A stretch of 36,535 nucleotides of DNA from Candidatus Methylomirabilota bacterium. GTDB lineage: Bacteria > Methylomirabilota > Methylomirabilia > Rokubacteriales > CSP1-6. Location: positions 1 to 36,535 of the forward strand of contig JBKPRI010000394.1 in NCBI GenBank assembly GCA_046734515.1. The letters are read 5' to 3'. This document shows, piece by piece, positions 2,367-16,785 of the stretch (within the stretch, counting starts at the first letter, position 1; the number at the start of each line of letters is the position of its first letter). The notes beneath the pieces were generated by a model. That model did no database searches. It saw only the letters and a list, made by a program, of their open reading frames with translations, and was not told the DNA's origin. A program made the translations under genes and the position numbers.

Positions 2367-5300
2367 ATGGCCAAAATTTGCCGGTTTGACCTCGTCGCGC
2401 TGTCACGTGCAACGGTGTTATGTCTGCTGACCGGACTCTTCCTCGCGCCGGCGGCCAGCGCCGACGTGCCGGTCCTCACGAGCTTCACTCCAGCCGCGGG
2501 TCCTGTCGGCACGACAGTCACGCTCAACGGGCGCGGATTTCTGGGTGCAACCGACGTGGTGTTCCAGGACGGCGTGCGGGCCACGCCCGCGACGGTGACA
2601 GCGACCTCTCTGCGTGTCGTCGTGCCAGCCGGCGCGGTAACGGGGAGTCTGGCCGTCGTGACCCCTGATGGACGGGGGACGTCGACCAGCGCGTTTCGCG
2701 TAGCACCCATGATCCTCGGCTTCTCGCCGACCACGGGCATCCTGGGCGCTCAGATCACGCTGAGCGGTTTCAATCTGGCGAATGCCGGCCCCCCGCCCGT
2801 CGTGCAGGTCGGCGCGGCTACGGCAGTCCTGACGGACGTCACCCCCACGTCGATCACGTTGACGATCCCGCCCACCGCGACGACTGGGCGGCTCACCGTG
2901 AAGACGTCGGACGGCGTCGCAACGACGGTCGCCAGCTTGACGGTCATCCGGCCGCCGACGGTGACGAGCTTTTCTCCGGCATCCGGAACGGTCGGACAGG
3001 TCGTCACCATCACGGGGACCGGCCTGAGCGGAGTGGCGGAGCTGCAGTTCGAGGGCGCACGCGCCGCCGTGCTCGCGCCGGCGTCGGCGACGTCGCTGCG
3101 GGTGACGGTGCCGGCCGGAGCGATGACGGGCCGTTTGTCGGTGACCAACACGGGCGGCAGTGGTCAGAGCGCGCAGCTGTTCCGTGTCGCGCCGAAGATT
3201 CTCGGCTTCACTCCGACCACCGGTATCCTGGGCACGCAGGTCACCCTGAGCGGCTTCAATCTGGCGAATGCCGGTCCGCCGCCCGTCGTGCAGGTGGGCG
3301 CGGTTCCCGCGGTCGTGACGGACGCCACCCCGACGTCGGTCACGCTGACGATTCCGCCGGCCGCGATGACCGGCCGACTCACCGTGAAGACTTCGGACGG
3401 GGTCGCGACGACGGATGCCAGCTTGACGGTGATCCGGCCGCCGACGGTGACGAGCTTCTCTCCGGCATCCGCAACGGTTGGACAGGTCGTCACCGTCACG
3501 GGGACCGGCCTCGGCGGAGTAGCGGAGGTGCGGTTCGAAGGCGCGAGCGCCCCGGTCCTGGCGCCCGCATCGCCGACGTCGCTGCGGGTCACAGTCCCGG
3601 CCGGAGCGACGACGGGCCGCCTGTCGGTGACGAACACGGGCGGCAGCGGTCAGAGCGCTCAGGTGCTTCGTGTCGCGCCGAAGATCCTCGACTTCGCTCC
3701 GGTCACCGGCATCCTCGGCACTCGGGTCACGCTGACCGGCTTCAACCTGGCGAATGCCGGCCCGCCGCCCGTGGTGCAGGTGGGGACCGTCTCGGCGGTT
3801 GTGACGGACGTCACCCCGACCTCGGTCACCATGACCATTCCGCCCGCCGCGACGACCGGACGGCTCACCGTGAGAACGTCGGACGGGGTCGCGACCACGG
3901 TCGCCAGCCTGACAGTGATCCGGCCGCCGACGGTGACCGCGCTCTCGCCGGCGTCCGGCACAGTCGGACAGGTCGTCACCCTCACCGGGACCGGTCTGAG
4001 TGGAGTGTCGGAAGTGCAGTTCGAGGGCGCGCGCGCCGCGGTCCTGGCCCCCGCGACCGCGACGTCGCTCCGGGTCACGGTGCCGGCCGGCGCGGTGACC
4101 GGTCGCCTGTCGGTGACCAACACGGGCGGCAGTGGTCTGAGCGCCTCGGTCTTCCGCCTCCTGCCGAAGATCACCGGACTCACGCCGACCGCGGCCCTCG
4201 TGAACGACCGCGTGACGGTGACGGGATTCAATCTCACGGAGAGCGCCGTGCCGACGGTCCGGGTGGGAGCGGTCGGTGCCACCGTCGTGACCGCCGCCCC
4301 CACGTCGGTCACGTTCACGGTGCCGGCTGCGGCGATCACGGGGCGTATCACGGTGATGACGACGGCTGCCGCGCTGAGTCCCACGGAGCTCATCGTGATC
4401 CGGCCGCCCACCGTCGCGTCGTTCTCGCCTGCCGCAGGTCCCGTCGGGACCACGGTCACCGTGAGCGGGACCAATCTCGGGACCGCGACCGGGGTGACGT
4501 TCAACGGCGGCGGCGTCGCCGCGGTCACCATCGTCTCGCCGACATCACTGCGCGTCGTGGTCCCGCCGGGCGCGACGACGGGTCGTATCGGCGTCATCAA
4601 CCCGGCCGGAAGCGCGCAGAGCGTCGGTGTGTTCCGCGCCGCGCCACGCATCACCCTCCTCTCGCCCGGCGCGGCCGTACCGGGCGAGGCCGTGACGATC
4701 ACGGGCTTCAATCTCACCGCGGGGGCTGCCCTGCCGACGGTGCGGGTCGGGTCCGTGGCCGCCGTCGTGAGCGGGGCGACGCCGACGTCGGCCACGCTGA
4801 TCGTGCCGGCCACGGCGACGACCAACCGCGTCTCCGTCACGACCGTCGATGGGACCGGCAGCAGCGACGCCGCGCTCACCGTGCTGGCGCGGACGGTGCC
4901 CCGCCCCGCCGCCATGCAGCCGCCGGCCGCCGCCGTCGGTGCGACGATCGTGGTGACGGGGAGTGGATTGTCCCTGAGCAACCGCGTCGTGTTCACCGGC
5001 GGCATCGCCGCCATTCCTACCGCGGTGACCGCCACGTCGCTGAGCGTGGTCGTCCCGAACGGCGCCGCCACGGGGCCGCTGACGGTCACGAATCCCGTGG
5101 GCACCGGGACGAGCGCCGCGACGCTGAGGATCCTGCCGGCGATCACCACCGTGACGCCGCGCGCGGGTGTCGTCGGGGCGACGATCACCGTGTCCGGAAC
5201 GAGTCTCAAGGTCGGCTCCAACGCTCCGCAGGTGAGCCTGGGCGGGCTGCCGGTCGCAGTCGAGACGTCCTCACCCGCCGCGGTGACGATCCGGATCCCG

Positions 5301-6608
5301 GAGGGCGCCGCGAGCGGACGGATTCAGCTGACCACCGCGGACGGCACGGCGACGAGCGCGGACACCGTGCTCGTCACCCCGCGAGCCGTCGTCGAGGCCG
5401 CGCTCCGCAAGACGACCACGCGGAGGACAGGGACCACGCTCGATCGCGTCGTCGAGGTGCGATTCCCCTCCCTCGTGGGGGACTTTCACTCCGTCACCGT
5501 CACGGATGGCGTCCTCTTGCAGGACGCACCGCTGGTCCTCGGAGGTCAGCTGGTGAGCGGCGGTCGAGTGACCGACGACTTCCGTCTGCGCCGGGTCTTG
5601 ACCGACACCGAGGAGTATCCGGCCGCCGACCGGCAGTTCACGATCGTCGCCACGCCGGCGGCCGGCGGCGATCCGATCGTGATGCACACGACACCCCAGA
5701 CGCTCGGGAGTCTCGACGAGGTGACGATTTTCGACGTCCTTAGTGCCCGCGTCACGGCTGAGCCCAGGATCCTCACCTTCTTGGAGTCGCAATCCTCGGT
5801 CGTGGGATCCACCGGCGAAGCGGCGGGTACTATCGTCGAGGTGTTCGGATGCCTCGGTCAGGACTGCTCGTTCACTAGCCTCGGCACCGCCCTCATGAGC
5901 CCACCATTTTGGGCATTCACCCTGCCGTCGGCAGTCCACCCCGGCGACCGTATCAGCGCGCGCGCCACAGCCCCCGGCAAGATCACCAGTCGTCTGACGT
6001 CATCGTTCATCGTTACGGGTCCCGGGCAGCTCGTCGCGCCGCGCATCGTCGAGCCGGTCTCGTCGAACACCACGGACCTGCTGGGGTCAGGCTCGGAAGG
6101 CAGCACGGTCGAAGTGTTTGCCGAAGGGCCGGTCGTGACATCCCTTGGCTCAGCGACAGTCGTGGCAGGCGCCTGGCAGATCCAGCTGGCCGAGGGCCTC
6201 GGCTCGGGACAGCGACTCTTCGCCATCGCGCGCCAGCCGGGCTTTGCTGACTCCCCGCCGAGCGAGGTCGTAGTCGTCGCCGAGCCCGCCGACACCGGGG
6301 TCTTCGCGTTCTCCGTCGTCGAGCAGGTGCCGCTGGTGATCGCCTGGGACATGAGAGGGCTCACCGCTCCGCTCGCGAGCCTTCGGCTGTCGATCATCGT
6401 CGCGAATGCCGAGCAGACGCTGGCCTGTTCCGAAACCGACGTGTTCAACGCCGATGTGGTGCCGCCGGGGACGGCGAGTGTCACCGTATTCGTCCCGTCC
6501 ACCTGCACGGGGCCCAGTGGGCCGCAGCCCGCTGTGCGGGGCGAAGTCTGCGTCGGAACCATCGACGACCGCGCCCAGCACAGCGAGCACTGCCTGGTTC
6601 TCGATTAG
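2367..6608 (+). CDS. Large secreted/surface protein with about 12 IPT/TIG domains and C-terminal Ig-like domains (1413 aa)
   Basis: Signal-peptide-like N terminus (...LFLAPAASA|DVP) and repeated P.(I/V)TSFSP..G.VG..VT(I/L)TG.(G/N)L ... VTVPAGA.TG.(L/I).VT units. GAGGGA RBS. Confidence 0.9.
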   Translation: MAKICRFDLVALSRATVLCLLTGLFLAPAASADVPVLTSFTPAAGPVGTTVTLNGRGFLGATDVVFQDGVRATPATVTATSLRVVVPAGAVTGSLAVVTPDGRGTSTSAFRVAPMILGFSPTTGILGAQITLSGFNLANAGPPPVVQVGAATAVLTDVTPTSITLTIPPTATTGRLTVKTSDGVATTVASLTVIRPPTVTSFSPASGTVGQVVTITGTGLSGVAELQFEGARAAVLAPASATSLRVTVPAGAMTGRLSVTNTGGSGQSAQLFRVAPKILGFTPTTGILGTQVTLSGFNLANAGPPPVVQVGAVPAVVTDATPTSVTLTIPPAAMTGRLTVKTSDGVATTDASLTVIRPPTVTSFSPASATVGQVVTVTGTGLGGVAEVRFEGASAPVLAPASPTSLRVTVPAGATTGRLSVTNTGGSGQSAQVLRVAPKILDFAPVTGILGTRVTLTGFNLANAGPPPVVQVGTVSAVVTDVTPTSVTMTIPPAATTGRLTVRTSDGVATTVASLTVIRPPTVTALSPASGTVGQVVTLTGTGLSGVSEVQFEGARAAVLAPATATSLRVTVPAGAVTGRLSVTNTGGSGLSASVFRLLPKITGLTPTAALVNDRVTVTGFNLTESAVPTVRVGAVGATVVTAAPTSVTFTVPAAAITGRITVMTTAAALSPTELIVIRPPTVASFSPAAGPVGTTVTVSGTNLGTATGVTFNGGGVAAVTIVSPTSLRVVVPPGATTGRIGVINPAGSAQSVGVFRAAPRITLLSPGAAVPGEAVTITGFNLTAGAALPTVRVGSVAAVVSGATPTSATLIVPATATTNRVSVTTVDGTGSSDAALTVLARTVPRPAAMQPPAAAVGATIVVTGSGLSLSNRVVFTGGIAAIPTAVTATSLSVVVPNGAATGPLTVTNPVGTGTSAATLRILPAITTVTPRAGVVGATITVSGTSLKVGSNAPQVSLGGLPVAVETSSPAAVTIRIPEGAASGRIQLTTADGTATSADTVLVTPRAVVEAALRKTTTRRTGTTLDRVVEVRFPSLVGDFHSVTVTDGVLLQDAPLVLGGQLVSGGRVTDDFRLRRVLTDTEEYPAADRQFTIVATPAAGGDPIVMHTTPQTLGSLDEVTIFDVLSARVTAEPRILTFLESQSSVVGSTGEAAGTIVEVFGCLGQDCSFTSLGTALMSPPFWAFTLPSAVHPGDRISARATAPGKITSRLTSSFIVTGPGQLVAPRIVEPVSSNTTDLLGSGSEGSTVEVFAEGPVVTSLGSATVVAGAWQIQLAEGLGSGQRLFAIARQPGFADSPPSEVVVVAEPADTGVFAFSVVEQVPLVIAWDMRGLTAPLASLRLSIIVANAEQTLACSETDVFNADVVPPGTASVTVFVPSTCTGPSGPQPAVRGEVCVGTIDDRAQHSEHCLVLD
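2703..4160 (+). repeat. Three near-identical 486-bp (162-aa, two-IPT) tandem coding repeats, followed by more diverged copies to about 5380
   Basis: Units start at 2703, 3189, 3675 and 4161 (exact 486-bp period), then 4641 and 5133. Confidence 0.9.
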
Positions 6609-6611
6609 TTA

Positions 6612-7043
6612 CTAGGGACCAAGCGGGTTGCACTTTCCGCCGTCGCCCGGCTGGTTGCACACGTCACTGTTGATCGCCTGGTTGACGAGCGCGGCCCAGT
6701 CGTCGGGGAAGCCCGCCGGAATCGTCGTCGTGCACTTCGCGCCCATCGCGGTTGCGGCAGGACCCGCCAGCAGGTAGCCCTGGCATGCCGCGTTGTCGGC
6801 GGCGGCCTTCACCGCGGCGACGTAGCCGGCATGCGTGCCGTAACGCTCCTCGAGCGACGGCCGCGTATCGCGGGCCGCCAGACGCTGCGCCTTGGTCTTG
6901 AAGAACGGAACCATGCCGCCGACGTAGTTGCAAACCTGGCCGGCGTGGCACGGCCGCCCGTCGTAGAACGGATGACCGGGCCCGGCGGTGATGTTCCAGC
7001 CAAGGTAGGTCGCGAGCGGGGCGTCGCGCTGCACGGTCGGCAT
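6612..7043 (-). pseudogene. 3' remnant of an alpha/beta-hydrolase-domain gene
   Basis: PLATYLGWN ... PFFKTKAQRLAARDTRPSLEERYGTHAGYVAAV resembles the C terminus of a family of much longer alpha/beta hydrolase-domain proteins (recognised from memory). The N-terminal part is absent and directly abuts the LysR remnant. Confidence 0.7.
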
Positions 7044-7560
7044 CTGGCCAGCGGCCGCCGCGGCCTCGTGACGATCGCGCGCTGCCCTCGGTGGCCTCCA
7101 CGCTGCTGCCCGACAGCATCGCCGAATTCACCGCGCGGCATCCCGGCGTCACCGTCCGCGTGCGCGACGGCGTCGCCGAGCGGGTGACGAGCCTGGTGAA
7201 GAGCGGCGAGGCGGACTTCGGGATCGGCAGCCCTGCCCGGAGCGATCCCGAGCTGCGCGTGTCCGCGCTGATGCACGATCCCCTCGGCGTGGCCTTTCGC
7301 CCCGGCCATCCGCTGGAGCGGCGCAAGCACGTGCGCCCGCGCGACCTCGTCGGCTGCCCGCTGATCCTGCTCGACGGCGACCACAGCGTGCGCGTGCTCA
7401 TCGAGCGCGTCTTCGAGTCCCTCGGCGAGCCGCTCACCGCTCACACCGGCCTACGAGGCCAGCTATGTGCCGACCGCGCTGGGCTTGGCCAAGGCCGGCC
7501 TCGGCGTCGCGGTCATCGCCTACACGGCCGATGCGGCGGCCACACAGGCCGCGGGCCCTC
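7041..7560 (+). pseudogene. LysR-type regulator remnant (substrate-binding domain only, two frameshifts)
   Basis: Reads HLASGRRGLVTIA /-1/ LPSVASTLLPDSIAEFTARHPGVTVRV...GEADFGI...EPL /+7/ TPAYEASYVPTALGLAKAGLGVAVI. There is no HTH. The end coordinate is approximate. Confidence 0.85.
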
Positions 7561-7605
7561 GCGGCGGTGGTCCATGCGAGCTGGGGCAACGACGTCCCGG
7601 TATGA

Positions 7606-7634
7606 TTGCGGCGGCCGGCCGCGTCGGCTACACT
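7606..7634 (+). promoter_or_regulatory. sigma70-type promoter of the ferritin-like/carboxylase operon
   Basis: TTGCGG (7606-7611), 17-bp spacer, TACACT (7629-7634). Confidence 0.6.
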
Positions 7635-7636
7635 CC

Positions 7637-7654
7637 ACTGAACGGTTGTTCAGT
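7637..7654. promoter_or_regulatory. Operator-like palindrome ACTGAAC-GGTT-GTTCAGT
   Basis: Perfect 7-bp inverted repeat immediately downstream of the -10 box, covering the expected +1. Confidence 0.65.
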
Positions 7655-7669
7655 CTCCGGGGGGCTCTC

Positions 7670-8425
7670 ATGGATCGACCGATCGCCTACGACAAGCTCG
7701 CGCGCGAGGACCGCTTCGTGCGGATGCGCACGCGGGATGTGGCCAACGCCAAGATCGAGCAGGGGATGCCGCCGTTTCCCGACCTCTCCAGCGACGCGTC
7801 CATGCGCGATCGCATCCACGGCATCCTCGTCGGCGAGATGCAGGCCATGGAAGGCGCGGGGCGCTCCGTCTACGACTTCCCGGACGCGCCGTGGGAGTTC
7901 ACGATGGACATGGCGCGCCAGGTCTGGGACGAGTCGCGCCACGTCGAAACGTACCTCGGGCTCCTCGATCACCTGGGCGGCTACGTGGGAGAGTTCCCAG
8001 AGACCACGCTGCTCTGGCGCTGTGCGTGCGCCGAGGACGCCGCGGCCCGGGTGGCCGGCGTGAACCGCGGCCTCGAGGGCCTGGCCTGCGACGTCTTCAA
8101 CCAGCTCATCCACATCGCCAGGAAGATCGGTGATCCCGTGCTCGAGCGCTCGGTCGACTACGTGCTGGCCGACGAGATCACGCACGTGCGCATGGGCTCG
8201 CGCTGGCTCAACGAGCTGACGCGCAACGATCCCGAGCGCCGCAAGCGGGCGATCGACTTCCAGGATTCGATCGACGAGCGCTTCAATCTGGGCGGCACGC
8301 GGCAGGACGGGCATCACGAGGTGGTGCCCATCTCGATCGCCAAGGACGCGCGCCGCCTGGCCGGCTTCACCGACGAGGAGATCGAGCGGCTCGTCAAGAG
8401 CACGCAGCGGTCCCAGGTGTACTAG
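7670..8425 (+). CDS. Ferritin-like diiron protein (DUF455-like, 251 aa)
   Basis: The four-helix-bundle ligand pattern E (GEMQAME), DESRH, E (GLEGLA), DEITH is present. The start is ATG 7670. The 444-aa ORF from 7091 is an artefact of the upstream LysR remnant. Confidence 0.85.
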   Translation: MDRPIAYDKLAREDRFVRMRTRDVANAKIEQGMPPFPDLSSDASMRDRIHGILVGEMQAMEGAGRSVYDFPDAPWEFTMDMARQVWDESRHVETYLGLLDHLGGYVGEFPETTLLWRCACAEDAAARVAGVNRGLEGLACDVFNQLIHIARKIGDPVLERSVDYVLADEITHVRMGSRWLNELTRNDPERRKRAIDFQDSIDERFNLGGTRQDGHHEVVPISIAKDARRLAGFTDEEIERLVKSTQRSQVY

Positions 8426-8437
8426 GGGCGTCCCAGG

Positions 8438-9409
8438 CTGGCCGCACATCCGCTCGAAGGGCACTTCAGCGTCGACGTCGCCGCGCGGCGTCTCCGCCAC
8501 TACCGCTACGTCGAGGAGCGCACCATGCGCATCCTCGGCGGCTGGATCGCGCTCACCCCGGAAGTCGACGTCAAGCTCCTCTTCGGCCGCCACGTGTGGG
8601 ACTGCGCCCAGCACGCCGACCTCTGGGGCCGGCGCCTTCCCGAGCTGCGCGCGAAGGCGCAGGAATCCGAGCCGGCGAACCCGGAGGTCGTGGCCGTCTT
8701 CGACCTGATCGAGACGGCCGAGGCGCCGGGGCAGACGGTCGAGCGCGTCACCGCCATCTACCGCGTGATGAAGCCGCACCTGGCCACCGTGTACGAGCGC
8801 CATCTTGCCGTCGCCAACCCCGTGTACGAGCCGCCCACCCGCCGCATCCTCCTGCGCTGTCTCGACGAGGAGCGGCGGCACGCCGCCGCCGGCGCGCTCG
8901 TGCTCGGGCGGCTCATCGCCCGCACGCCCGCCCTGGGCGAGCGCGCCCGGCAGTGGGAGCGCCGGGTGCTCGAGGCTCTGGCGGGTGCGCGTGGGATCAC
9001 CGGCGACGTTGAGCCGCCGCTGGTCGTCGATCCCCCCACGCCGGCCGATCCTCTGGCCGTCGCGCAGGACCTCGTGGCGCCGCCGCGGCCGCCCGAGGTG
9101 GAAGCCGCGCTCGGTGATCTCGCGCGACCGCTCGCGGCTCACCGGGCGGCGATCGCGCGCGGCGATCTGGGCGCCGTGCGCGCCGAGCTCAGCGCCGACG
9201 CCGCGCCCGACGCCGTCGGGGAGTACGCCCGGCTGATGCCGCCGTTCGACAGCGTGGACGTCGTCGGTGTGGCGCGCATCGGCCGCCAGCGCATGGTGAA
9301 GCTGGCGCTCGCCGGCCCGCGCGGCCGTCAGGTCTTGCAGGAGCGCTGGATGCCGGCCGACGGGGGCTGGCGCGTCGTGACCGTCGAGGTCACCGACCGC
9401 ACGTCCTGA
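8438..9409 (+). CDS. Second ferritin-like protein (degenerate ligand set) with a C-terminal NTF2/SnoaL-like extension; start uncertain (CTG 8438 or ATG 8525)
   Basis: Helical segments YVEERTM, WDCAQHAD and LDEERRH, then a Pro-rich linker and a ~100-aa domain ending GGWRVVTVE. Coding-like sequence continues upstream of ATG 8525. The stop overlaps the next start (TGATG). Confidence 0.7.
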   Translation: MAAHPLEGHFSVDVAARRLRHYRYVEERTMRILGGWIALTPEVDVKLLFGRHVWDCAQHADLWGRRLPELRAKAQESEPANPEVVAVFDLIETAEAPGQTVERVTAIYRVMKPHLATVYERHLAVANPVYEPPTRRILLRCLDEERRHAAAGALVLGRLIARTPALGERARQWERRVLEALAGARGITGDVEPPLVVDPPTPADPLAVAQDLVAPPRPPEVEAALGDLARPLAAHRAAIARGDLGAVRAELSADAAPDAVGEYARLMPPFDSVDVVGVARIGRQRMVKLALAGPRGRQVLQERWMPADGGWRVVTVEVTDRTS

Positions 9410-10749
9410 TGCGCCGCGTCCTGGTCGCCAACCGCGGCGAGATCGCTCGCCGTATCTTCCGGGCGTGCCGCACGGCTGGTCTCGCCACGGTCGCCGTGTA
9501 CTCCGAGGCCGACAAGGACGCGCCCCACGTCCGCGACGCCGACCAGGCGATCATGCTCGGCCCGCCGCCCGCGCGCGAGAGCTATCTCGACGTGGAGCGC
9601 CTCATTCACGCCGCGCGGCGCAGCGACGCCGACGCCGTGCACCCGGGCTATGGCTTCCTCTCCGAGAACTGGCGGTTCGCCGAGGCGGTCACGCGCGCAG
9701 GGCTGACGTTCATCGGCCCCCCCGCCGAGGCCGTGCGCGCCATGGGCGACAAGACCGAGGCGCGGCGGCTGATGGCCGCGGCCGGCGTGCCGACGATGCC
9801 CGGCAGTCCGGGGCCCATCTCGGACGCCGCCGAGGCTGAGGCGCTTGGCGCGCGCGTCGGGTTTCCGCTGGTCATCAAGGCGGCGGGTGGCGGCGGCGGC
9901 ATCGGCATGGTGCGCGTGGACAAGGCGGCGGACCTTGCCAGCGCGTTCGCCGCGGCCACGCGGCGCGCGCAGTCGGCCTTCGCCAATCCCACCGTCTACG
10001 TCGAGCGCTATCTCGAGCGTCCACGGCACGTCGAGGTCCAGGTGTTCGCCGACCGCCACGGCGCCGTCGTGCACCTGCACGAGCGCGAGTGCTCCATTCA
10101 GCGCCGCCACCAGAAGCTGATCGAGGAGTCGCCGGCGCCCACCCTGCCGGCGGCGACCAAGCGCGGGCTCACCGAGGCCGCCGTGGCCGGCGCGCGCGCG
10201 ATCGGCTACGTGAACGCCGGCACGATGGAGTTCCTCGTCGACGCTGCGGGCGGCTTCTATTTTCTCGAGATGAATACGCGCATCCAGGTCGAGCATCCCG
10301 TGACGGAAGAGGTGACCGGACTGGACCTCGTCCTGGAGCAGCTGCGGGTGGCGGCGGGCGAGCGGCTGTCGTGGCGCCAGGAGGATATCGGCCAGCGCGG
10401 CGCCGCCATCGAGGTTCGCGTGTACGCCGAGGACCCTGACAAGAACTTCCTGCCCTCGCCGGGCACGATCACGCGGCTGGAGCTCCCGGCGGGCGAGGGG
10501 ATTCGCGTGGAGTCGGGCGTGGAGTCCGGCAGCGTGGTCTCCGTCCACTACGACCCGCTGCTCTTCAAGCTGATCGCGCGCGGTGCCGACCGCGAGGAGG
10601 CGCTTGCCCGCATGCGCACCGCGCTCGCGGCGACGGTGGTCGAGGGCGTGAAGTCCACCGTGCCGTTCCTCCGCAAAGCCCTCGAGCATCCCGACGTTCG
10701 CCGTGGCGCGCTCCACACTCAGATGGTGGACCAGGGCGCCTTCCGCTAA
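9409..10749 (+). CDS. accC: Biotin carboxylase subunit of an acyl-CoA carboxylase
   Basis: VLVANRGEIA, HPGYGFLSEN, GGGGIGM, ERECSIQRRHQKLIEESP, FLEMNTRIQVEHPVTE. Confidence 0.93.
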   Translation: MRRVLVANRGEIARRIFRACRTAGLATVAVYSEADKDAPHVRDADQAIMLGPPPARESYLDVERLIHAARRSDADAVHPGYGFLSENWRFAEAVTRAGLTFIGPPAEAVRAMGDKTEARRLMAAAGVPTMPGSPGPISDAAEAEALGARVGFPLVIKAAGGGGGIGMVRVDKAADLASAFAAATRRAQSAFANPTVYVERYLERPRHVEVQVFADRHGAVVHLHERECSIQRRHQKLIEESPAPTLPAATKRGLTEAAVAGARAIGYVNAGTMEFLVDAAGGFYFLEMNTRIQVEHPVTEEVTGLDLVLEQLRVAAGERLSWRQEDIGQRGAAIEVRVYAEDPDKNFLPSPGTITRLELPAGEGIRVESGVESGSVVSVHYDPLLFKLIARGADREEALARMRTALAATVVEGVKSTVPFLRKALEHPDVRRGALHTQMVDQGAFR

Positions 10750-10779
10750 ACTCCGAATTTACAAAAGGAGCCCCTGTCC

Positions 10780-10995
10780 ATGCCGGAGGAGATCAAGGCT
10801 CACATCACGGGCGTCGTCTTTCAGATTCCCACCAAGCAGGGTGACAAGGTGGGCGCGGGCGACCCCGTCATCGTGCTGGAGTCGATGAAGATGGAGATTC
10901 CCGTCGAGGCGCCGCGCGCGGGCGTCGTGCGGGAGATCAAGGTGCAGGAGGGGCAGACGGTGCAGGAGGGCGACACCGTCGCCGTCCTGGAGTAG
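10780..10995 (+). CDS. Stand-alone biotin carboxyl carrier protein (71 aa)
   Basis: ESMKME biotinylation motif and AGGAG RBS. Confidence 0.93.
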   Translation: MPEEIKAHITGVVFQIPTKQGDKVGAGDPVIVLESMKMEIPVEAPRAGVVREIKVQEGQTVQEGDTVAVLE

Positions 10996-11006
10996 GGAGA
11001 GCAACC

Positions 11007-11516
11007 ATGAGCGCCTCGATGCTGCGCGATCTCTACGAATACCATCGCTGGGCCAACCGCCGGCTCTTCGACGTGGCCGCGGCACTCGGCGAGGAGGCCT
11101 GCGCCAAGGACCTCGGCAAGCACTTCAGCGTGCCGAACCTGACGCGCATGTTCGCCCACATCTACGGCGCCGATCTGAACTGGCTCAAGCGCTTCAAGGG
11201 CTCCTCGCCGACGGAATCGCCCTTCTTCGAGATCGCCACGATGGCCGAGGTGCGCCGCCAGTGGGACCCGCTCGAGGCCGAGCAGAAGGCGTTCGTCGAG
11301 GGGCTGAGCGAGGCGGACGTCGCCCGCGAGATTCATTACAAGACCTCGCGGGGCGAGGCGTTCCACGTCGCGCTCGGTGTGCTGCTCCAGCACGTGGCCA
11401 ATCACGCGACGCACCACCGCAGCGAGATCGCCACCATGCTCACGCTCCTGAGCGGCTCGCCGCCCGACACCGGGATCAACACCTGGATCCTGCACCGCAC
11501 CGGCCAAGCGCGCTGA
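11007..11516 (+). CDS. DinB/YfiT-superfamily metalloprotein (not Pol IV)
   Basis: Y..WAN.R N terminus and the His triad AH ... NHATHHRSE. Confidence 0.88.
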   Translation: MSASMLRDLYEYHRWANRRLFDVAAALGEEACAKDLGKHFSVPNLTRMFAHIYGADLNWLKRFKGSSPTESPFFEIATMAEVRRQWDPLEAEQKAFVEGLSEADVAREIHYKTSRGEAFHVALGVLLQHVANHATHHRSEIATMLTLLSGSPPDTGINTWILHRTGQAR

Positions 11517-11520
11517 TCGC

Positions 11521-13074
11521 ATGCCGATGAAGGACCACGCCGACGACCTCGCCCGGCGGCGGGCGAAGGCGCGGCAGATGGGCGGCGAGGACGCGGTGGC
11601 GCGGCAGCACGCCGCCGGCAAGCTGACCGCGCGCGAGCGCGTCGACCGGCTCTTCGACAAGGACACCTTCACCGAGATCGGCGTGCACGCCACACACGCC
11701 GGGATCGCGCCCGATCTGGCCGGCCGCGACACGCCGGCCGACGGCGTCATCACGGGCTTCGGCAAGATCGACGGGCGGATGGCCTCCGTGATCGCCTACG
11801 ACTTCACGGTCATGGCCGGTTCGATGGGCCGCAACGCCGAGACGAAGTGCAACCGCGCGCGCGAGATCGCCTACACCAAGCGCGTGCCGATGATCTGGCT
11901 GATCGACTCCGCCGGCGCGCGCATCCAGGAGGCGATCGGCTCGCGCTGGTTCGCCGGCTCCGGTGTGCTCTTCCGCGAGGAGTCGGTCTTTTCGGGTGTC
12001 GTCCCGCAGGTCGCCGCGATGATGGGCCCCGGCGCCGCCGGCACCGCGTACATCCCCGCGCTCGCCGACTTCGTGCCGATGGTGAAGGGGACCAGCAACA
12101 TGGCGCTCGGCGGCCCGCCGCTGGTGAAGGCGGTCGTCGGCGAGGACATCACCGCCGAGGAGCTCGGCGGCTCGAAGGTCCACACCGAAATCTCCGGCGT
12201 GGCCGACCTCGAGGTGGACGACGACGAGCACTGCCTGCGCGTGATCAAGGAATACCTGGCGTACTTCCCGTCGCACAACCAGGAGCCGCCGCCGGTGATC
12301 GCCTGCGACGACCCGGTGGACCGCCGCGACGAGGAGTTGTTGACGATCCTTCCCGACAGTCCGCGCCGCGCCTACGACGTGAAGAAGGTCATTCGCGCTC
12401 TGGTGGACCACGGCCGGATGCTGGAGATCAAGCCGGGCTGGGCGAAGAACATCGTGACAGCGCTGGCGCGGCTCAACGGCCACCCCGTCGGCGTCATCGC
12501 CAACCAGCCGATGGTGCTGGGCGGCGCGCTCGATCTCGACAGCGCCGACAAGGCCGCGCGCTTCATCATGCTGTGCGACGCCTTCAACATCCCGCTGGTC
12601 TTCCTGCAGGACGTCCCCGGCTTCATGGTGGGGAGCAAGGTCGAGCGTGCCGGCATCATCCGCCATGGCGCCAAGATGCTCTACGCCGTCAGCGAGGCCA
12701 CCGTCCCCAAGCTGACCGTGGTCATGCGCAAGGCGTACGGCGCCGGCTACTTCGTCATGTGCGGCCGCGCCTACGAGCCCGACCTGATCGTCGCCTGGCC
12801 GACGGCGGAGATCAGCGTGATGGGCCCCGAGGGCGGCACCAACATCGTCTACCGCAAGGAGATCGCCGCTGCCGCGAACCCGGATGAAGAACGTGCCCGC
12901 CGGGTGGAGGACTTCCGCAAGCTGATCTCTCCTTATATCGCCGCCGGCGCCGCCCTCATCGACGACGTCATCGACCCGCGGGACACTCGCCCGACCTTGA
13001 TCCGCGCGCTGGAGATGGCCAAGAGCAAGCGCGTGGACCGCCCCTGGCGCAAGCACGGCGTGATGCCGGTCTAG
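11521..13074 (+). CDS. Acyl-CoA carboxylase carboxyltransferase (beta) subunit, PccB-like
   Basis: GKLTARER, DFTVMAGS, DSAGARIQE, DVPGFMVG, RKAYGAG, IDDVIDPRDTR, RKHGVMPV. Confidence 0.93.
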   Translation: MPMKDHADDLARRRAKARQMGGEDAVARQHAAGKLTARERVDRLFDKDTFTEIGVHATHAGIAPDLAGRDTPADGVITGFGKIDGRMASVIAYDFTVMAGSMGRNAETKCNRAREIAYTKRVPMIWLIDSAGARIQEAIGSRWFAGSGVLFREESVFSGVVPQVAAMMGPGAAGTAYIPALADFVPMVKGTSNMALGGPPLVKAVVGEDITAEELGGSKVHTEISGVADLEVDDDEHCLRVIKEYLAYFPSHNQEPPPVIACDDPVDRRDEELLTILPDSPRRAYDVKKVIRALVDHGRMLEIKPGWAKNIVTALARLNGHPVGVIANQPMVLGGALDLDSADKAARFIMLCDAFNIPLVFLQDVPGFMVGSKVERAGIIRHGAKMLYAVSEATVPKLTVVMRKAYGAGYFVMCGRAYEPDLIVAWPTAEISVMGPEGGTNIVYRKEIAAAANPDEERARRVEDFRKLISPYIAAGAALIDDVIDPRDTRPTLIRALEMAKSKRVDRPWRKHGVMPV

Positions 13075-13082
13075 CTCGGCCC

Positions 13083-14315
13083 ATGCGTCTGGCGGTCGGC
13101 AACGTCGCCGACCAGTTCTTCGTCACGGACGTCTTCCGTGAGCCCAGCTATCGACGGCTGTGGGCCTCCGGCCTCTGCCTGAGCATTGCGCGCTGGATGG
13201 ACCTGGTGACGCTCGGCTGGCTGTCCTTCCAGCTCACGGGCTCGCCGTTCATGGTCGGGCTGGCGGCGTTCGCGCGCGCCGCGCCCATGATGTTCGTGGG
13301 GCCGTTCACCGGTATCGTCGCCGACCGTGTGCCGCGTGCCCGCGTGCTGCTGATCTCGCAGACCGCCGGGCTGATCACGGCGCTCGCGCTCGCCGCCATC
13401 TTCGCCTCCGGCCGCGGCGGGTACTGGTCGCTCGTGGGGCTGGAAGTCGTGTTCGGCCTCGTCTGGGCGCTCGATTTTCCCTCGCGGCGGACGGCGCTCT
13501 ACGCGGTGCTGGGAGCCTCGCGGGTGGCGCAGGCGGTCTCGCTCGAAACGGTGTCCATGCAGATCGCCAAGATGCTGGGGCCGCTGGCCGCCGGGCTCTG
13601 CCTGGCGCGGGTGGGGCCGGAGGCATCGTTCGCGAGCATGGCGCTGCTCTACGCGGTCGGGCTCATGGCCTCCAGCCGGCTCGGCGCGCGGCTCGGAGGA
13701 CCGTCGGCGGCGACCGCCTCGCTGGCTGCCACCATGCGGGCGGGACTCCACGCGGCGTGGACGACGCCCACGGTGCGCGCGGTGCTGCTGGTGACGATCG
13801 CGATGAACACGCTCTTCTTCCCCTACCAGCACATGCTGCCGGTCTTCGCGCGCGAGATTCTCCTGGTGGGGCCGGTCGGCCTCGGCGTCCTGGTGGCCGC
13901 CGACGGCTGCGGGGCACTGCTGGGGGCGCTCTACATCGCCTCGCGGCGCGGGCAGATCGGCCATCGCACGCTGTTCGGAAGCGCGGTGATGGTGGCGCCG
14001 CTGCTGCTGGTGGCGCTGTCGGGCTCGCGGCGGATCGGTCTCTGCGTCGCCCTGCTGGTGGTGATGGGCGCGGCGGAGTCGGGATTCGCGGCGATGCAGA
14101 GCACGCTGGTGCTCCTCTCCGCGCCCGAGCGATTGCGCGGGGGTGTCATGGGCATCCTGTCGGCGTGCATCGGCACCCAGCCGCTGGGCACGCTGGCCAT
14201 CGGACTGCTGGCCGCGAGTGCGGGCGTGCCCGCGGCCTTCACCGTGAACGCGCTCGCCGCGCTGGTCGTGATCGTTCCCCTGGCTCTGCCGCTGGTGCGT
14301 GGCCGGCCGGATTGA
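13083..14315 (+). CDS. MFS transporter
   Basis: About 12 hydrophobic segments and motif A-like GIVADRVPRAR. Confidence 0.9.
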   Translation: MRLAVGNVADQFFVTDVFREPSYRRLWASGLCLSIARWMDLVTLGWLSFQLTGSPFMVGLAAFARAAPMMFVGPFTGIVADRVPRARVLLISQTAGLITALALAAIFASGRGGYWSLVGLEVVFGLVWALDFPSRRTALYAVLGASRVAQAVSLETVSMQIAKMLGPLAAGLCLARVGPEASFASMALLYAVGLMASSRLGARLGGPSAATASLAATMRAGLHAAWTTPTVRAVLLVTIAMNTLFFPYQHMLPVFAREILLVGPVGLGVLVAADGCGALLGALYIASRRGQIGHRTLFGSAVMVAPLLLVALSGSRRIGLCVALLVVMGAAESGFAAMQSTLVLLSAPERLRGGVMGILSACIGTQPLGTLAIGLLAASAGVPAAFTVNALAALVVIVPLALPLVRGRPD

Positions 14316-14317
14316 AT

Positions 14318-14326
14318 TGGCATAAT
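14318..14326 (+). promoter_or_regulatory. Extended -10 promoter (TGGCATAAT), probably for a leaderless mRNA
   Basis: TGn-CATAAT ends 6 bp before ATG 14333 and no SD sequence is present. Confidence 0.5.
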
Positions 14327-14332
14327 CGCGCC

Positions 14333-15250
14333 ATGCGCCCGAGCTGGCAGGCGCGCTGCTGCACCGTCGTCATCCGGGTGCTGATGCGCCGGGTCCGATG
14401 GGGCGGGGACGCCGAAAAGCTCGCCCGCCGCACGCGCCGGCTCTTCGGCGCGCCCAACCCGTTGCAGTGGCTTCGCGCTCGCGGTGTGCGCATCGAGCCG
14501 GTGCAGGGAGACGTCCGCGGTGAGTGGGTGACGGCCGCCGGCGCCGACCGCGGCGTCATCCTCTATATGCATGGGGGCGGCTACGTCGCCGGCTCGCCCG
14601 CCACCCACCGGCCGATCACCGCAGCCCTGGGGCGGCTGACCGGACGCCGCGTGTTCAGCCTGGACTACCGGCTCGCGCCGGAACATCGCTTTCCCGCCGC
14701 GCTCGATGATGCGCTCGCCGCCTACCGCTGGCTGCTCGGGCAGGGGATCGCGCCGTCCAGGCTGGCGCTGGCCGGGGACTCGGCGGGAGGCGGCCTGGTG
14801 CTGGCCCTGTCGCTGCGTGCTCGCGATGAAGGTCTGCCGCAGGCGGCGTGCGGCATCTGCCTCTCACCGTGGACGGATCTCGCCGGCTCGGGCGACTCGC
14901 TGACGCGGAACAACGGTGTCGGCGCGATGTTCCGGCCCGAGAACATGGCCGAGTTCGCCCAGGTCTACCTCGGTCCCGTGACGCCCAAGGAGCCGTACGC
15001 CTCGCCGCTCTACGGCGACCTGCGCGGGCTTCCACCGCTGCTCTTCCAGGTCGGATCGGAGGAGCTGCTCCTGGACGACTCCTGCCGCGTCCACGAGGCG
15101 GTGCGGGGCGCGGGCGGGCGCTCGACGCTCCAGGTCACCTGCGGGGTCTTCCACGTCTGGCAGATGCTGGACGGCTTCCTGCCCGAGGCGCGAGAGGCCC
15201 TGCTCCGCGTGGCGGACTTTCTCGAAAAGACGAAGGGCCCGGCTGGTTAG
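14333..15250 (+). CDS. Alpha/beta hydrolase, HSL-family esterase (305 aa)
   Basis: HGGGY, DYRLAPEH.FP, GDSAGG nucleophile elbow, C-terminal FHVW. Confidence 0.92.
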   Translation: MRPSWQARCCTVVIRVLMRRVRWGGDAEKLARRTRRLFGAPNPLQWLRARGVRIEPVQGDVRGEWVTAAGADRGVILYMHGGGYVAGSPATHRPITAALGRLTGRRVFSLDYRLAPEHRFPAALDDALAAYRWLLGQGIAPSRLALAGDSAGGGLVLALSLRARDEGLPQAACGICLSPWTDLAGSGDSLTRNNGVGAMFRPENMAEFAQVYLGPVTPKEPYASPLYGDLRGLPPLLFQVGSEELLLDDSCRVHEAVRGAGGRSTLQVTCGVFHVWQMLDGFLPEAREALLRVADFLEKTKGPAG

Positions 15251-15261
15251 AGCCGGGCCCT
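15234..15261 (-). terminator. Intrinsic terminator of the sigma-factor gene (possibly bidirectional)
   Basis: AGGGCCCGGCT-GGTTAG-AGCCGGGCCCT forms a perfect 11-bp stem, followed by TCGTCTTTT on the minus strand, between convergent genes. Confidence 0.75.
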
Positions 15262-15285
15262 ATGTAAACCGCGGCGCGGGGCGTC

Positions 15286-16785
<1,500 letters not shown>

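Follow-up and report, generated by a model that had tools for sequence, protein, structure and literature searches.

The window analysed here, the whole 36,535-nucleotide (nt) stretch of contig JBKPRI010000394.1, comes from a Candidatus Methylomirabilota bacterium and carries an operon in which two ferritin-like genes, Fer1 and Fer2, are followed by genes for a biotin carboxylase (BC), a biotin carboxyl carrier protein (BCCP), a DinB-fold protein, a carboxyltransferase (CT) and a transporter. Our analysis suggests that Fer1, a DUF455 protein, very probably forms a heteromer with Fer2, that the operon is most likely controlled by a repressor of the Bacillus FadR type, and that the neighboring carboxylase is an accessory enzyme whose genes are retained to different degrees among relatives. 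The contig (C394 in our numbering, in which C, G, and L denote contigs, genomes, and loci) belongs to a metagenome-assembled genome of 4.6 Mb that is 82% complete. The window has a G+C content of ~70%, and its Fer1 is 81-94% identical to proteins labelled by their sources as Candidatus Rokubacteria or Methylomirabilota.

The seven genes run head to tail on the + strand from 7670 to 14315, with intergenic distances, in order, of 12, -1, 30, 11, 4, and 8 nt, and a TGATG overlap at 9407-9411 joins the stop codon of Fer2 to the start codon of BC. A sequence-only reading of the window had described a tight, co-oriented block of seven genes, and these distances, none above 30 nt and one of them an overlap, bear out that description. 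The features of the operon are as follows.

7606..7634, + strand: candidate promoter, with the -35 box TTGCGG at 7606-7611, a 17-nt spacer, and the -10 box TACACT at 7629-7634; called from the reading of the sequence and its recurrence in relatives
7637..7654, no strand assigned: putative operator, the perfect inverted repeat ACTGAAC-GGTT-GTTCAGT with the core TGAAC-N4-GTTCA at 7639-7652, abutting the -10 box
7670..8425, + strand: Fer1, DUF455 ferritin-like protein of 251 residues (PF04305, 94.4 bits against a cut-off of 34.3)
8438..9409, + strand: Fer2, diverged DUF455-like protein with an NTF2-like domain and a probable CTG start, assigned from profile homology to Fer1 and the predicted model
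9409..10749, + strand: BC (PF00289, PF02786, PF02785; NF006367, 607 bits against a cut-off of 597)
10780..10995, + strand: BCCP of 71 residues with an SMKM motif (PF00364; NF004547, 85.6 bits against a cut-off of 75)
11007..11516, + strand: DinB-fold protein (PF05163, 65.8 bits)
11521..13074, + strand: PccB-type CT of ~517 residues (PF01039, 567 bits)
13083..14315, + strand: EntS/MFS_3-type transporter, the final gene of the tight block (PF05977, 114.7 bits)

Fer1 and Fer2

The PF04305 match of Fer1 spans profile positions 49-247 of 247. Among homologues, the length of Fer1 is constant at 251 residues, with 76-96% identity across the order. In an alignment of 15 diverse homologues, the ligand positions E56/E61, E88, H91, E136, E169, and H172 are invariant, as are R83, W86, R90, and R133, which surround them. 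The AlphaFold2 model of Fer1 is helical, with a predicted local distance difference test score (pLDDT) of 88, and its top structural match is the cyanobacterial aldehyde-deformylating oxygenase (ADO; Z 17.3, root mean square deviation of 3.0 Å over 191 aligned residues). The next matches, at Z 14.7-15.4, are the R2-like ligand-binding oxidases (R2lox, 15.4), the hydroxylase of soluble methane monooxygenase, and MiaE, while Dps-like proteins and bacterioferritins are found at Z 14-15. Because helical bundles score high generally, these matches indicate the fold class of Fer1 and not its function. A search of the ESM Atlas returned DUF455 clusters only. Within the pair, Fer1 is probably the catalytic subunit. 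Some Rokubacteria genomes hold, besides the main operon, a second cluster of two to three tandem DUF455 paralogues that are 34-39% identical to Fer1 (G165:C12:73713-77539, G086:C279:44512-45853, and G068:C29:26928-28306).

Fer2 had no match in Pfam (E <=0.01), NCBIfam, or the sequences of the PDB, and the DUF455 hidden Markov model did not match it either. Profile-profile comparison (hhalign) aligned it with Fer1 at a probability of 96 and an E value of 1.5e-9. In this alignment, Fer2 retains H59, E145, and H148, and two of the six ligand positions are replaced; C56 lies at the position of Fer1 E88, and an invariant lysine, K112, at that of Fer1 E136. The AlphaFold2 model of Fer2 (pLDDT 91) consists of a helical domain at residues 1-190 and an NTF2-like domain at residues ~205-322. 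Foldseek matched this model to CADD, PaaC, and NTF2-like proteins at E ~0.007 and to nothing at E 0.001 or better. In Tectomicrobia and in the second Rokubacteria family, the NTF2-like module has a small gene of its own, and Binatia have it twice.

Prediction of the complex of Fer1 and Fer2 gave an interface score (ipSAE) of 0.91 in three runs, compared with 0.00 for the best of three controls. This score is attained by 116 of 157 solved complexes and by 2 of 215 mismatched pairs, counts that hold only roughly here because the prediction used custom alignments. At least 97% of contacts are shared among the runs, with a partner pLDDT of at least 90, and the predicted interface includes the NTF2-like domain packed against the N terminus of Fer1. 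Moreover, natural fusions of 400-485 residues in other bacteria combine a Fer2-like N-terminal half with a DUF455 C-terminal half (hhalign probability 99.8, E 1.9e-27), and the adjacency of Fer1 and Fer2 is maintained in three phyla. Overall, it is very probable that Fer1 and Fer2 associate into a heteromer in which one subunit is catalytic and the other degenerate. The sequence-only reading had proposed such a pair, built like PaaA/PaaC, with a full E/ExxH/E/ExxH set in the first protein and a partly degenerate set in the second. Both ligand sets are recovered in our alignments, and the proposed architecture is supported by the predicted complex, the fusions, and the comparison of ligands.

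The same data bear on whether Fer1/Fer2 might be a non-enzymatic, ferritin- or rubrerythrin-like protein for iron handling or protection that is merely co-expressed with lipid catabolism. The ferritin fold, the presence of Dps-like proteins and bacterioferritins among the structural matches, and the lack of a reductase partner in the operon would all suit such a role. However, a predicted heterodimer in which one site is degenerate and an NTF2-like domain is present resembles PaaA/PaaC-type enzymes, the top structural matches are substrate-oxidising enzymes, and R83, W86, R90, and R133 are conserved around the ligands. In addition, distant fused homologues (~30% identical; 8 metagenome loci annotated out of 80 returned) occur with sugar catabolism genes, in a cluster for a ribosomally synthesised and post-translationally modified peptide, and with a wax-ester synthase; these contexts are mixed and share no common functional clue, but they are gene clusters of the kind in which enzymes are found. 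We therefore regard a purely iron-handling role as very improbable.

The start of Fer2 required separate consideration. No in-frame ATG, GTG, or TTG is present between the Fer1 stop codon and ATG 8525, and the 28 residues preceding ATG 8525 are conserved. The 58 relatives listed have GTG, ATG, or TTG at the position of CTG 8438, and the Binatia homologues have ATG there. Both the conserved residues and the start codons of relatives support the CTG 8438 start suggested earlier for this gene. Fer1 and Fer2 share one frame with a single TAG between them (8423-8440). In the genus of the source genome, six relatives have an in-frame CTG immediately after the TAG of Fer1 and no canonical start codon, and in the window four in-frame codons separate the TAG from CTG; changes downstream of the TAG preserve the protein sequence, which points to translation. 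Fer2 is thus likely to be made from the CTG start or by re-initiation after termination. Read-through of the TAG to yield a Fer1-Fer2 fusion in this genus was considered less likely, because Fer1 homologues have 251 residues throughout and other genera use overlapping or out-of-frame starts.

Promoter, operator, and regulator

A simple scan for the sigma-70 consensus called no promoter in 7400-15400, so the promoter call rests on conservation: in relatives, too, Fer1 is preceded by the arrangement TTGCC-N17-TA(C/G)ACT and then the palindrome. Of 54 Rokubacteria loci, 39 have the palindrome TGAAC-N4-GTTCA upstream of Fer1; 33 of these copies are exact, 5 carry a single mismatch, and 1 carries two. 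Twelve of the 15 palindrome-free loci have a TATAAT-like hexamer 5-11 nt before the Fer1 ATG, as in leaderless-type promoters; L062, L077, L084, and L096-L103 are among the loci with such a hexamer.

The source genome contains three exact copies of the palindrome, against 0.74 expected. Five other genomes contain 1-4 exact sites each, 11 in total, compared with 0 for the reversed control pattern, and they precede the Fer operon, a pair of PimC/PimD-like acyl-CoA dehydrogenase genes, or an operon in which a TetR gene is followed by an enoyl-CoA hydratase gene. The third exact copy in the source genome, on C17 before AAA and VWA genes, was unseen in the five other genomes and may be due to chance. 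The palindrome is also present in the promoter of the TetR gene itself in 30 of 30 genomes of the first Rokubacteria family, f1 (22 exact, 6 with one mismatch, and 2 with two mismatches), or in 29 of 29 when one unpublished genome is left out.

The orthologue of this TetR regulator in G137 scores 205.6 bits against the NCBIfam FadR model NF053878 (cut-off 200). The regulator carries the YsiA-like C-terminal domain PF08359, and among solved structures it is closest to the FadR proteins of Bacillus subtilis and Bacillus halodurans (1vi0, 3whb, and 5gp9; E 1e-41 to 1e-37). The source genome encodes an orthologue that is 87% identical, on the minus strand of contig C144 (9697-10281), together with a box that has one mismatch. 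The regulator is present in 43 of 46 f1 genomes and in 0 of 14 genomes of the second family, f2; likewise, the palindrome is missing from all six f2-type loci (L098-L103), where a TAGAAT hexamer closely precedes the ATG. This match of regulator and operator between the two families represents one evolutionary contrast and not a statistic. Judged from these sequence relationships, the cognate repressor is most likely a Bacillus-type FadR of the TetR family, and the earlier view that the operon is repressor-controlled gains support from the conserved operator and from this candidate regulator.

Two of the FadR-type boxes, at C287:3012-3025 and C144:10314-10327 of the source genome (G000), lie in divergent intergenic regions, on the opposite flanks of which are genes for an M20 peptidase and for a luciferase-like monooxygenase. 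The Binatia locus L131 also has an M20 peptidase gene and a luciferase-like gene close to its Fer cluster. In Binatia, a TetR gene upstream of Fer2 is conserved; it has no match to the YsiA-type domain, and its identity as FadR is not confirmed.

The palindrome could in principle be an SOS (LexA) box that renders the operon damage-inducible. Gram-positive LexA boxes resemble the core GAAC-N4-GTTC, a DinB-fold gene is part of the operon, and a gene for a Y-family DNA polymerase lies upstream (1046-2218; directly upstream in L101). However, the lexA promoters of G000 and G137 carry TCAAC-N4-GTTGA instead, TGAAC-N4-GTTCA with at most one mismatch occurs in 0 of the 3 lexA promoters read (G000, G137, and G027), and the other sites of the motif adjoin fatty-acid genes and the FadR-type gene. 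We therefore rejected the LexA box, whose likelihood we consider close to nil. The sequence TCAAC-N4-GTTGA, found ~40 nt before lexA in G000 C407 (L258) and also in G137 (L257), probably represents the LexA box in this group; one base per half-site distinguishes it from the FadR-type operator.

Conservation of the carboxylase genes and setting of the operon

The carboxylase encoded in the window is complete, as the sequence-only reading had stated, with a three-domain BC, a BCCP with the biotinyl-lysine motif SMKM, and a crotonase-type CT. The best solved relatives of CT are 1vrg, 7w5u, 1x0u, and 1on3 (490-516 bits), compared with 304 bits for the beta subunit of methylcrotonyl-CoA carboxylase (3u9r) and 258 bits for geranyl-CoA carboxylase (5ikl). 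These bit scores to solved chains, from which the class was assigned, support placing CT in the PccB-type acetyl-/propionyl-CoA class. A role as the housekeeping acetyl-CoA carboxylase was rejected: accA scores above its cut-off in 5 of 5 genomes, and accD-type matches and other BC and BCCP genes are present elsewhere. Since canonical accA and accD-type genes exist elsewhere in the genomes, the operon carboxylase is an accessory enzyme. The genomes also hold further BC, BCCP, and CT paralogues. In the source genome, a single frame of ~1599 residues at C52:7095-10421 (minus strand) contains BC, BCCP, and CT domains and looks like a long-chain acyl-CoA carboxylase-like fusion.

Fer1 is present in 116 of 125 f1 genomes, where a few matches are weak paralogues, and in 13 of 16 f2 genomes, compared with 2 of 59 genomes in the other ten families of the phylum, both of them weak matches. 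For the neighborhood, a scan with one genome per species was used, from which the best 80 of 602 relatives were taken, a sample that leans to close relatives. Fifty-five of these 80 loci are of the Rokubacteria type, including a few that are labelled as other taxa but are 80-84% identical and have the same gene order. Counted only at Rokubacteria loci with enough downstream sequence, the genes that accompany Fer1 are present as follows.

Fer2: 50/50
BC: 44/48
BCCP: 47/47
DinB-fold gene: 34/44
CT: 16/41

A second, overlapping sample of 20 long contigs, hand-picked over genera from more than 100 places with Fer1 and filtered at 50% coverage, gave BCCP at 20/20, BC at 16/20, and CT at 6/20. Only a few relatives (L034, L035, L054, and L057) were found to have the transporter after the operon, and the DinB-fold protein has no sequence relative among solved structures.

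In all five genomes tested whose operon lacks CT (at least 93% complete), a CT orthologue is absent genome-wide; the best CT in these genomes shows 45-48% identity, a value in the range of paralogues, whereas operon orthologues are 72-91% identical. Similarly, a BC orthologue is absent from 4 of 4 genomes without an operon BC, in which the best match is 51-56% identical. Synteny holds across the two families of the order. Outside the phylum, no BC, BCCP, or CT was found within the 8-kb flanks at 24 of 24 Binatia-type loci or at the single Tectomicrobia locus; the Fer orthologues of both groups are 53-70% identical. The order in Binatia is TetR, Fer2, two NTF2-like genes, two copies of Fer1, and then a phosphoenolpyruvate carboxykinase gene. 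When the question is whether the iron pair is rarely found beside carboxylase genes, the answer is therefore divided: the adjacency is kept inside Rokubacteriales and is absent in Binatia and Tectomicrobia. The complete carboxylase is not the conserved part of the system, whereas BCCP is never lost at Rokubacteria loci.

The sequence-only reading had proposed that the diiron enzyme and the carboxylase act successively on one acyl-CoA in an undescribed catabolic or building-block route. The TGATG translational coupling of Fer2 and BC, the order Fer1-Fer2-BC-BCCP kept across the order at the frequencies given above, and one regulated promoter for the whole block all favor this proposal. However, the PccB-type CT, which defines the substrate, is missing at 25 of 41 loci, an orthologue is also lacking elsewhere in the five such genomes tested, and the iron pair occurs without a carboxylase gene at the Binatia-type loci and in Tectomicrobia. 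Of this proposal, the heteromer, the repressor, and the complete PccB-type carboxylase in the window are upheld, whereas the coupling of oxygenation to carboxylation is not, and we now consider such a coupled route unlikely.

A more direct tie is also conceivable, in which the iron pair is itself the partner of BC and BCCP, so that carboxybiotin is delivered to the dimetal site of Fer1/Fer2 or the prosthetic group of the carrier is the substrate. BCCP is the sole carboxylase part that is never lost, BC and BCCP remain as orphans beside Fer1-Fer2 in genomes without an operon-type CT, and the invariant K112 of Fer2 occupies the position of the Fer1 ligand E136. Carbamylated lysines bridge metals in some carboxyl-transfer domains. 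On the other hand, the Binatia and Tectomicrobia orthologues have no BCCP nearby, paralogous CTs able to serve in trans exist in every genome tested, and BC was lost in four lineages. These points make a direct partnership quite improbable, and less likely than the coupled route. If true, it would place a structurally new type of acceptor component beside the crotonase-type and TIM-barrel-type carboxyltransferases, and it would explain why the carrier is retained despite the loss of CT in most lineages.

The wider setting of the operon is housekeeping, with genes for ribosomal proteins, argJ, tsf, ispG, and proS downstream. In a second-family relative (L101), the polymerase gene directly precedes Fer1, and a sigma gene directly follows BCCP. 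From the housekeeping setting and these same flanking genes, the operon is judged to be an old resident of its chromosomal site and not an island. In the window, the gene at 2367-6608, which encodes an IPT/TIG repeat protein of 1413 residues with 12 repeats, sits between the polymerase IV gene and the Fer operon; it looks like an insertion, because the polymerase gene is directly before Fer1 in the second-family relative. Gene remnants lie within 6612-7600, just before the promoter, namely a C-terminal Abhydrolase_10 fragment on the minus strand (6612-7043) and a LysR substrate-binding-domain fragment without a DNA-binding domain (7091-7432), the frame of which stays open into Fer1. After the operon, an esterase gene of the hormone-sensitive-lipase type (14333-15250) has a CATAAT hexamer 6 nt upstream of its ATG, and a hairpin at 15234-15261 lies between this gene and a convergent sigma-70 gene. 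The TATAAT-like hexamer before the esterase ATG (14321-14335) suggests a leaderless esterase transcript.

Near-identical short contigs, some with 0-1 differences per ~220 nt, cover the operon in three metatranscriptome libraries from three studies. Some of them bridge the Fer1/Fer2, BCCP/DinB, DinB/CT, and CT/MFS junctions, although contigs are weak evidence that cannot prove transcription or a single transcript. Among the RNA-library matches listed, none spans the Fer2/BC junction at 9409, which is spanned only by a run of unknown kind; this carries no weight either way.

Interpretation and comparison with known systems

Comparison and prediction support the operon, its operator, the family of its regulator, the predicted heterodimer, and the class of the carboxylase. 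The interpretation we favor, to which we give an even chance, is that this is an operon of a fatty-acid (acyl-CoA) degradation regulon, repressed by FadR, in which a DUF455 heterodimer and an accessory PccB-type carboxylase are co-regulated without being obligatorily coupled. The FadR encoded on C144 would bind the palindrome that abuts the -10 box and, by analogy with characterised FadR proteins, a build-up of acyl-CoA would release it from the DNA. Two modules would then be produced. The first would be a soluble diiron oxygenase or oxidase with its complete metal site in Fer1, while Fer2, with two ligands lost, would supply the NTF2-like domain that docks on the N terminus of Fer1; the most likely reaction of this enzyme is the oxidation (hydroxylation or desaturation) of a fatty-acyl substrate. 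The second would be the split three-subunit acyl-CoA carboxylase, accompanied by the DinB-fold protein and an exporter, and it most likely acts on the short acyl-CoAs, propionyl- or acetyl-CoA for example, that beta-oxidation releases.

Several observations weigh against this interpretation. The operon has no reductase or ferredoxin gene, and the electron source of the oxygenase is thus not accounted for. FadR control is not universal, as illustrated by the 12 loci with a leaderless-type promoter and without the operator. Structural matches of helical bundles carry limited weight, the calibration of the complex prediction is approximate, and Fer1 and Fer2 have no close relative that is solved or characterised. 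Moreover, BCCP is kept at every locus although CT is lost at 25 of 41 and BC at 4 of 48, an indication that the iron pair and the carrier are linked more directly, and co-regulation alone does not explain this unbroken retention.

A literature search that included COG2833, PF04305, and IPR007402, and that covered papers outside subscription-only journals, found no published work on the function of DUF455 and no publication pairing a ferritin-like diiron protein with a biotin carboxylase. In the accessible parts of two papers, DUF455 appears only as a mention in a fold-assignment survey (PMC4520260), and a DUF455 protein is named in the proteomic response to lanthanum (PMC9988556). DUF455 is a widespread ferritin-like family, and the locus offers three testable handles on its function. 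The first is an obligate two-subunit architecture, which is backed by the natural fusions. The second is membership in an acyl-CoA-responsive FadR regulon, which would narrow the search for a substrate to fatty-acyl compounds. The third is the unexplained association, across the order, with a biotin carboxylase and a mini biotin carrier. Should the iron pair and the carrier be directly linked, they would constitute a biotin-dependent enzyme of a new kind; otherwise, the locus would still define, for an abundant uncultured soil phylum, a new heteromeric diiron oxygenase acting in lipid metabolism.

The putative regulon resembles that of the Bacillus-type FadR (YsiA) in that its regulator passes the FadR cut-off, appears to be autoregulated, and probably controls acyl-CoA dehydrogenase and enoyl-CoA hydratase genes. 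As given in the accessible text of the published reports, the Thermus FadR operator has the consensus TTRNACYNRGTNYAA and the half-site TTRNAC (PMC5597230), and the B. halodurans operator is a pseudo-palindrome with the half-sites TGAAT and ATTCA (PMC5397183); the Rokubacterial half-site TGAAC resembles both TGAAT and TTRNAC. However, the sequence and spacing of the Rokubacterial operator, TGAAC-N4-GTTCA, are its own, and the regulon here would include a diiron enzyme and a carboxylase, which are not reported for FadR regulons in the accessible parts of PMC5397183 and PMC5597230.

With PaaA/PaaC and the BoxB-type acyl-CoA epoxidases, the Fer pair shares a soluble ferritin-like diiron fold, a predicted pairing of a catalytic subunit with a homologous subunit that has lost metal ligands, and a probable place in CoA-thioester catabolism under a repressor, and chains A and C of 3pvr are among the structural matches of both Fer proteins. 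However, neither Fer1 nor Fer2 matches PF05138 (E <=0.01), although two distant Fer2 homologues carry a precomputed PF05138 label. The Fer operon lacks PaaB-, PaaD-, and PaaE-like genes and holds BC, BCCP, DinB, CT, and major facilitator superfamily (MFS) genes, and the NTF2-like module, fused or separate, takes the place of the Paa accessory genes.

ADO and R2lox, the best structural neighbors of Fer1, are likewise small diiron or Mn/Fe proteins, and according to their entry titles they have been solved with bound fatty-acyl ligands. Nevertheless, they are only 14-17% identical to Fer1, and the sequence match of R2lox to Fer1 reaches only E 0.13. ADO works as a monomer, whereas an obligate partner subunit is predicted for Fer1. 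Finally, the carboxylase resembles the split three-subunit acetyl-/propionyl-CoA carboxylases in its separate BC, short BCCP, and PccB-type CT of ~517 residues, but here it lies behind a diiron gene pair, is interrupted by a DinB-fold gene, and has a CT that is dispensable in most relatives.

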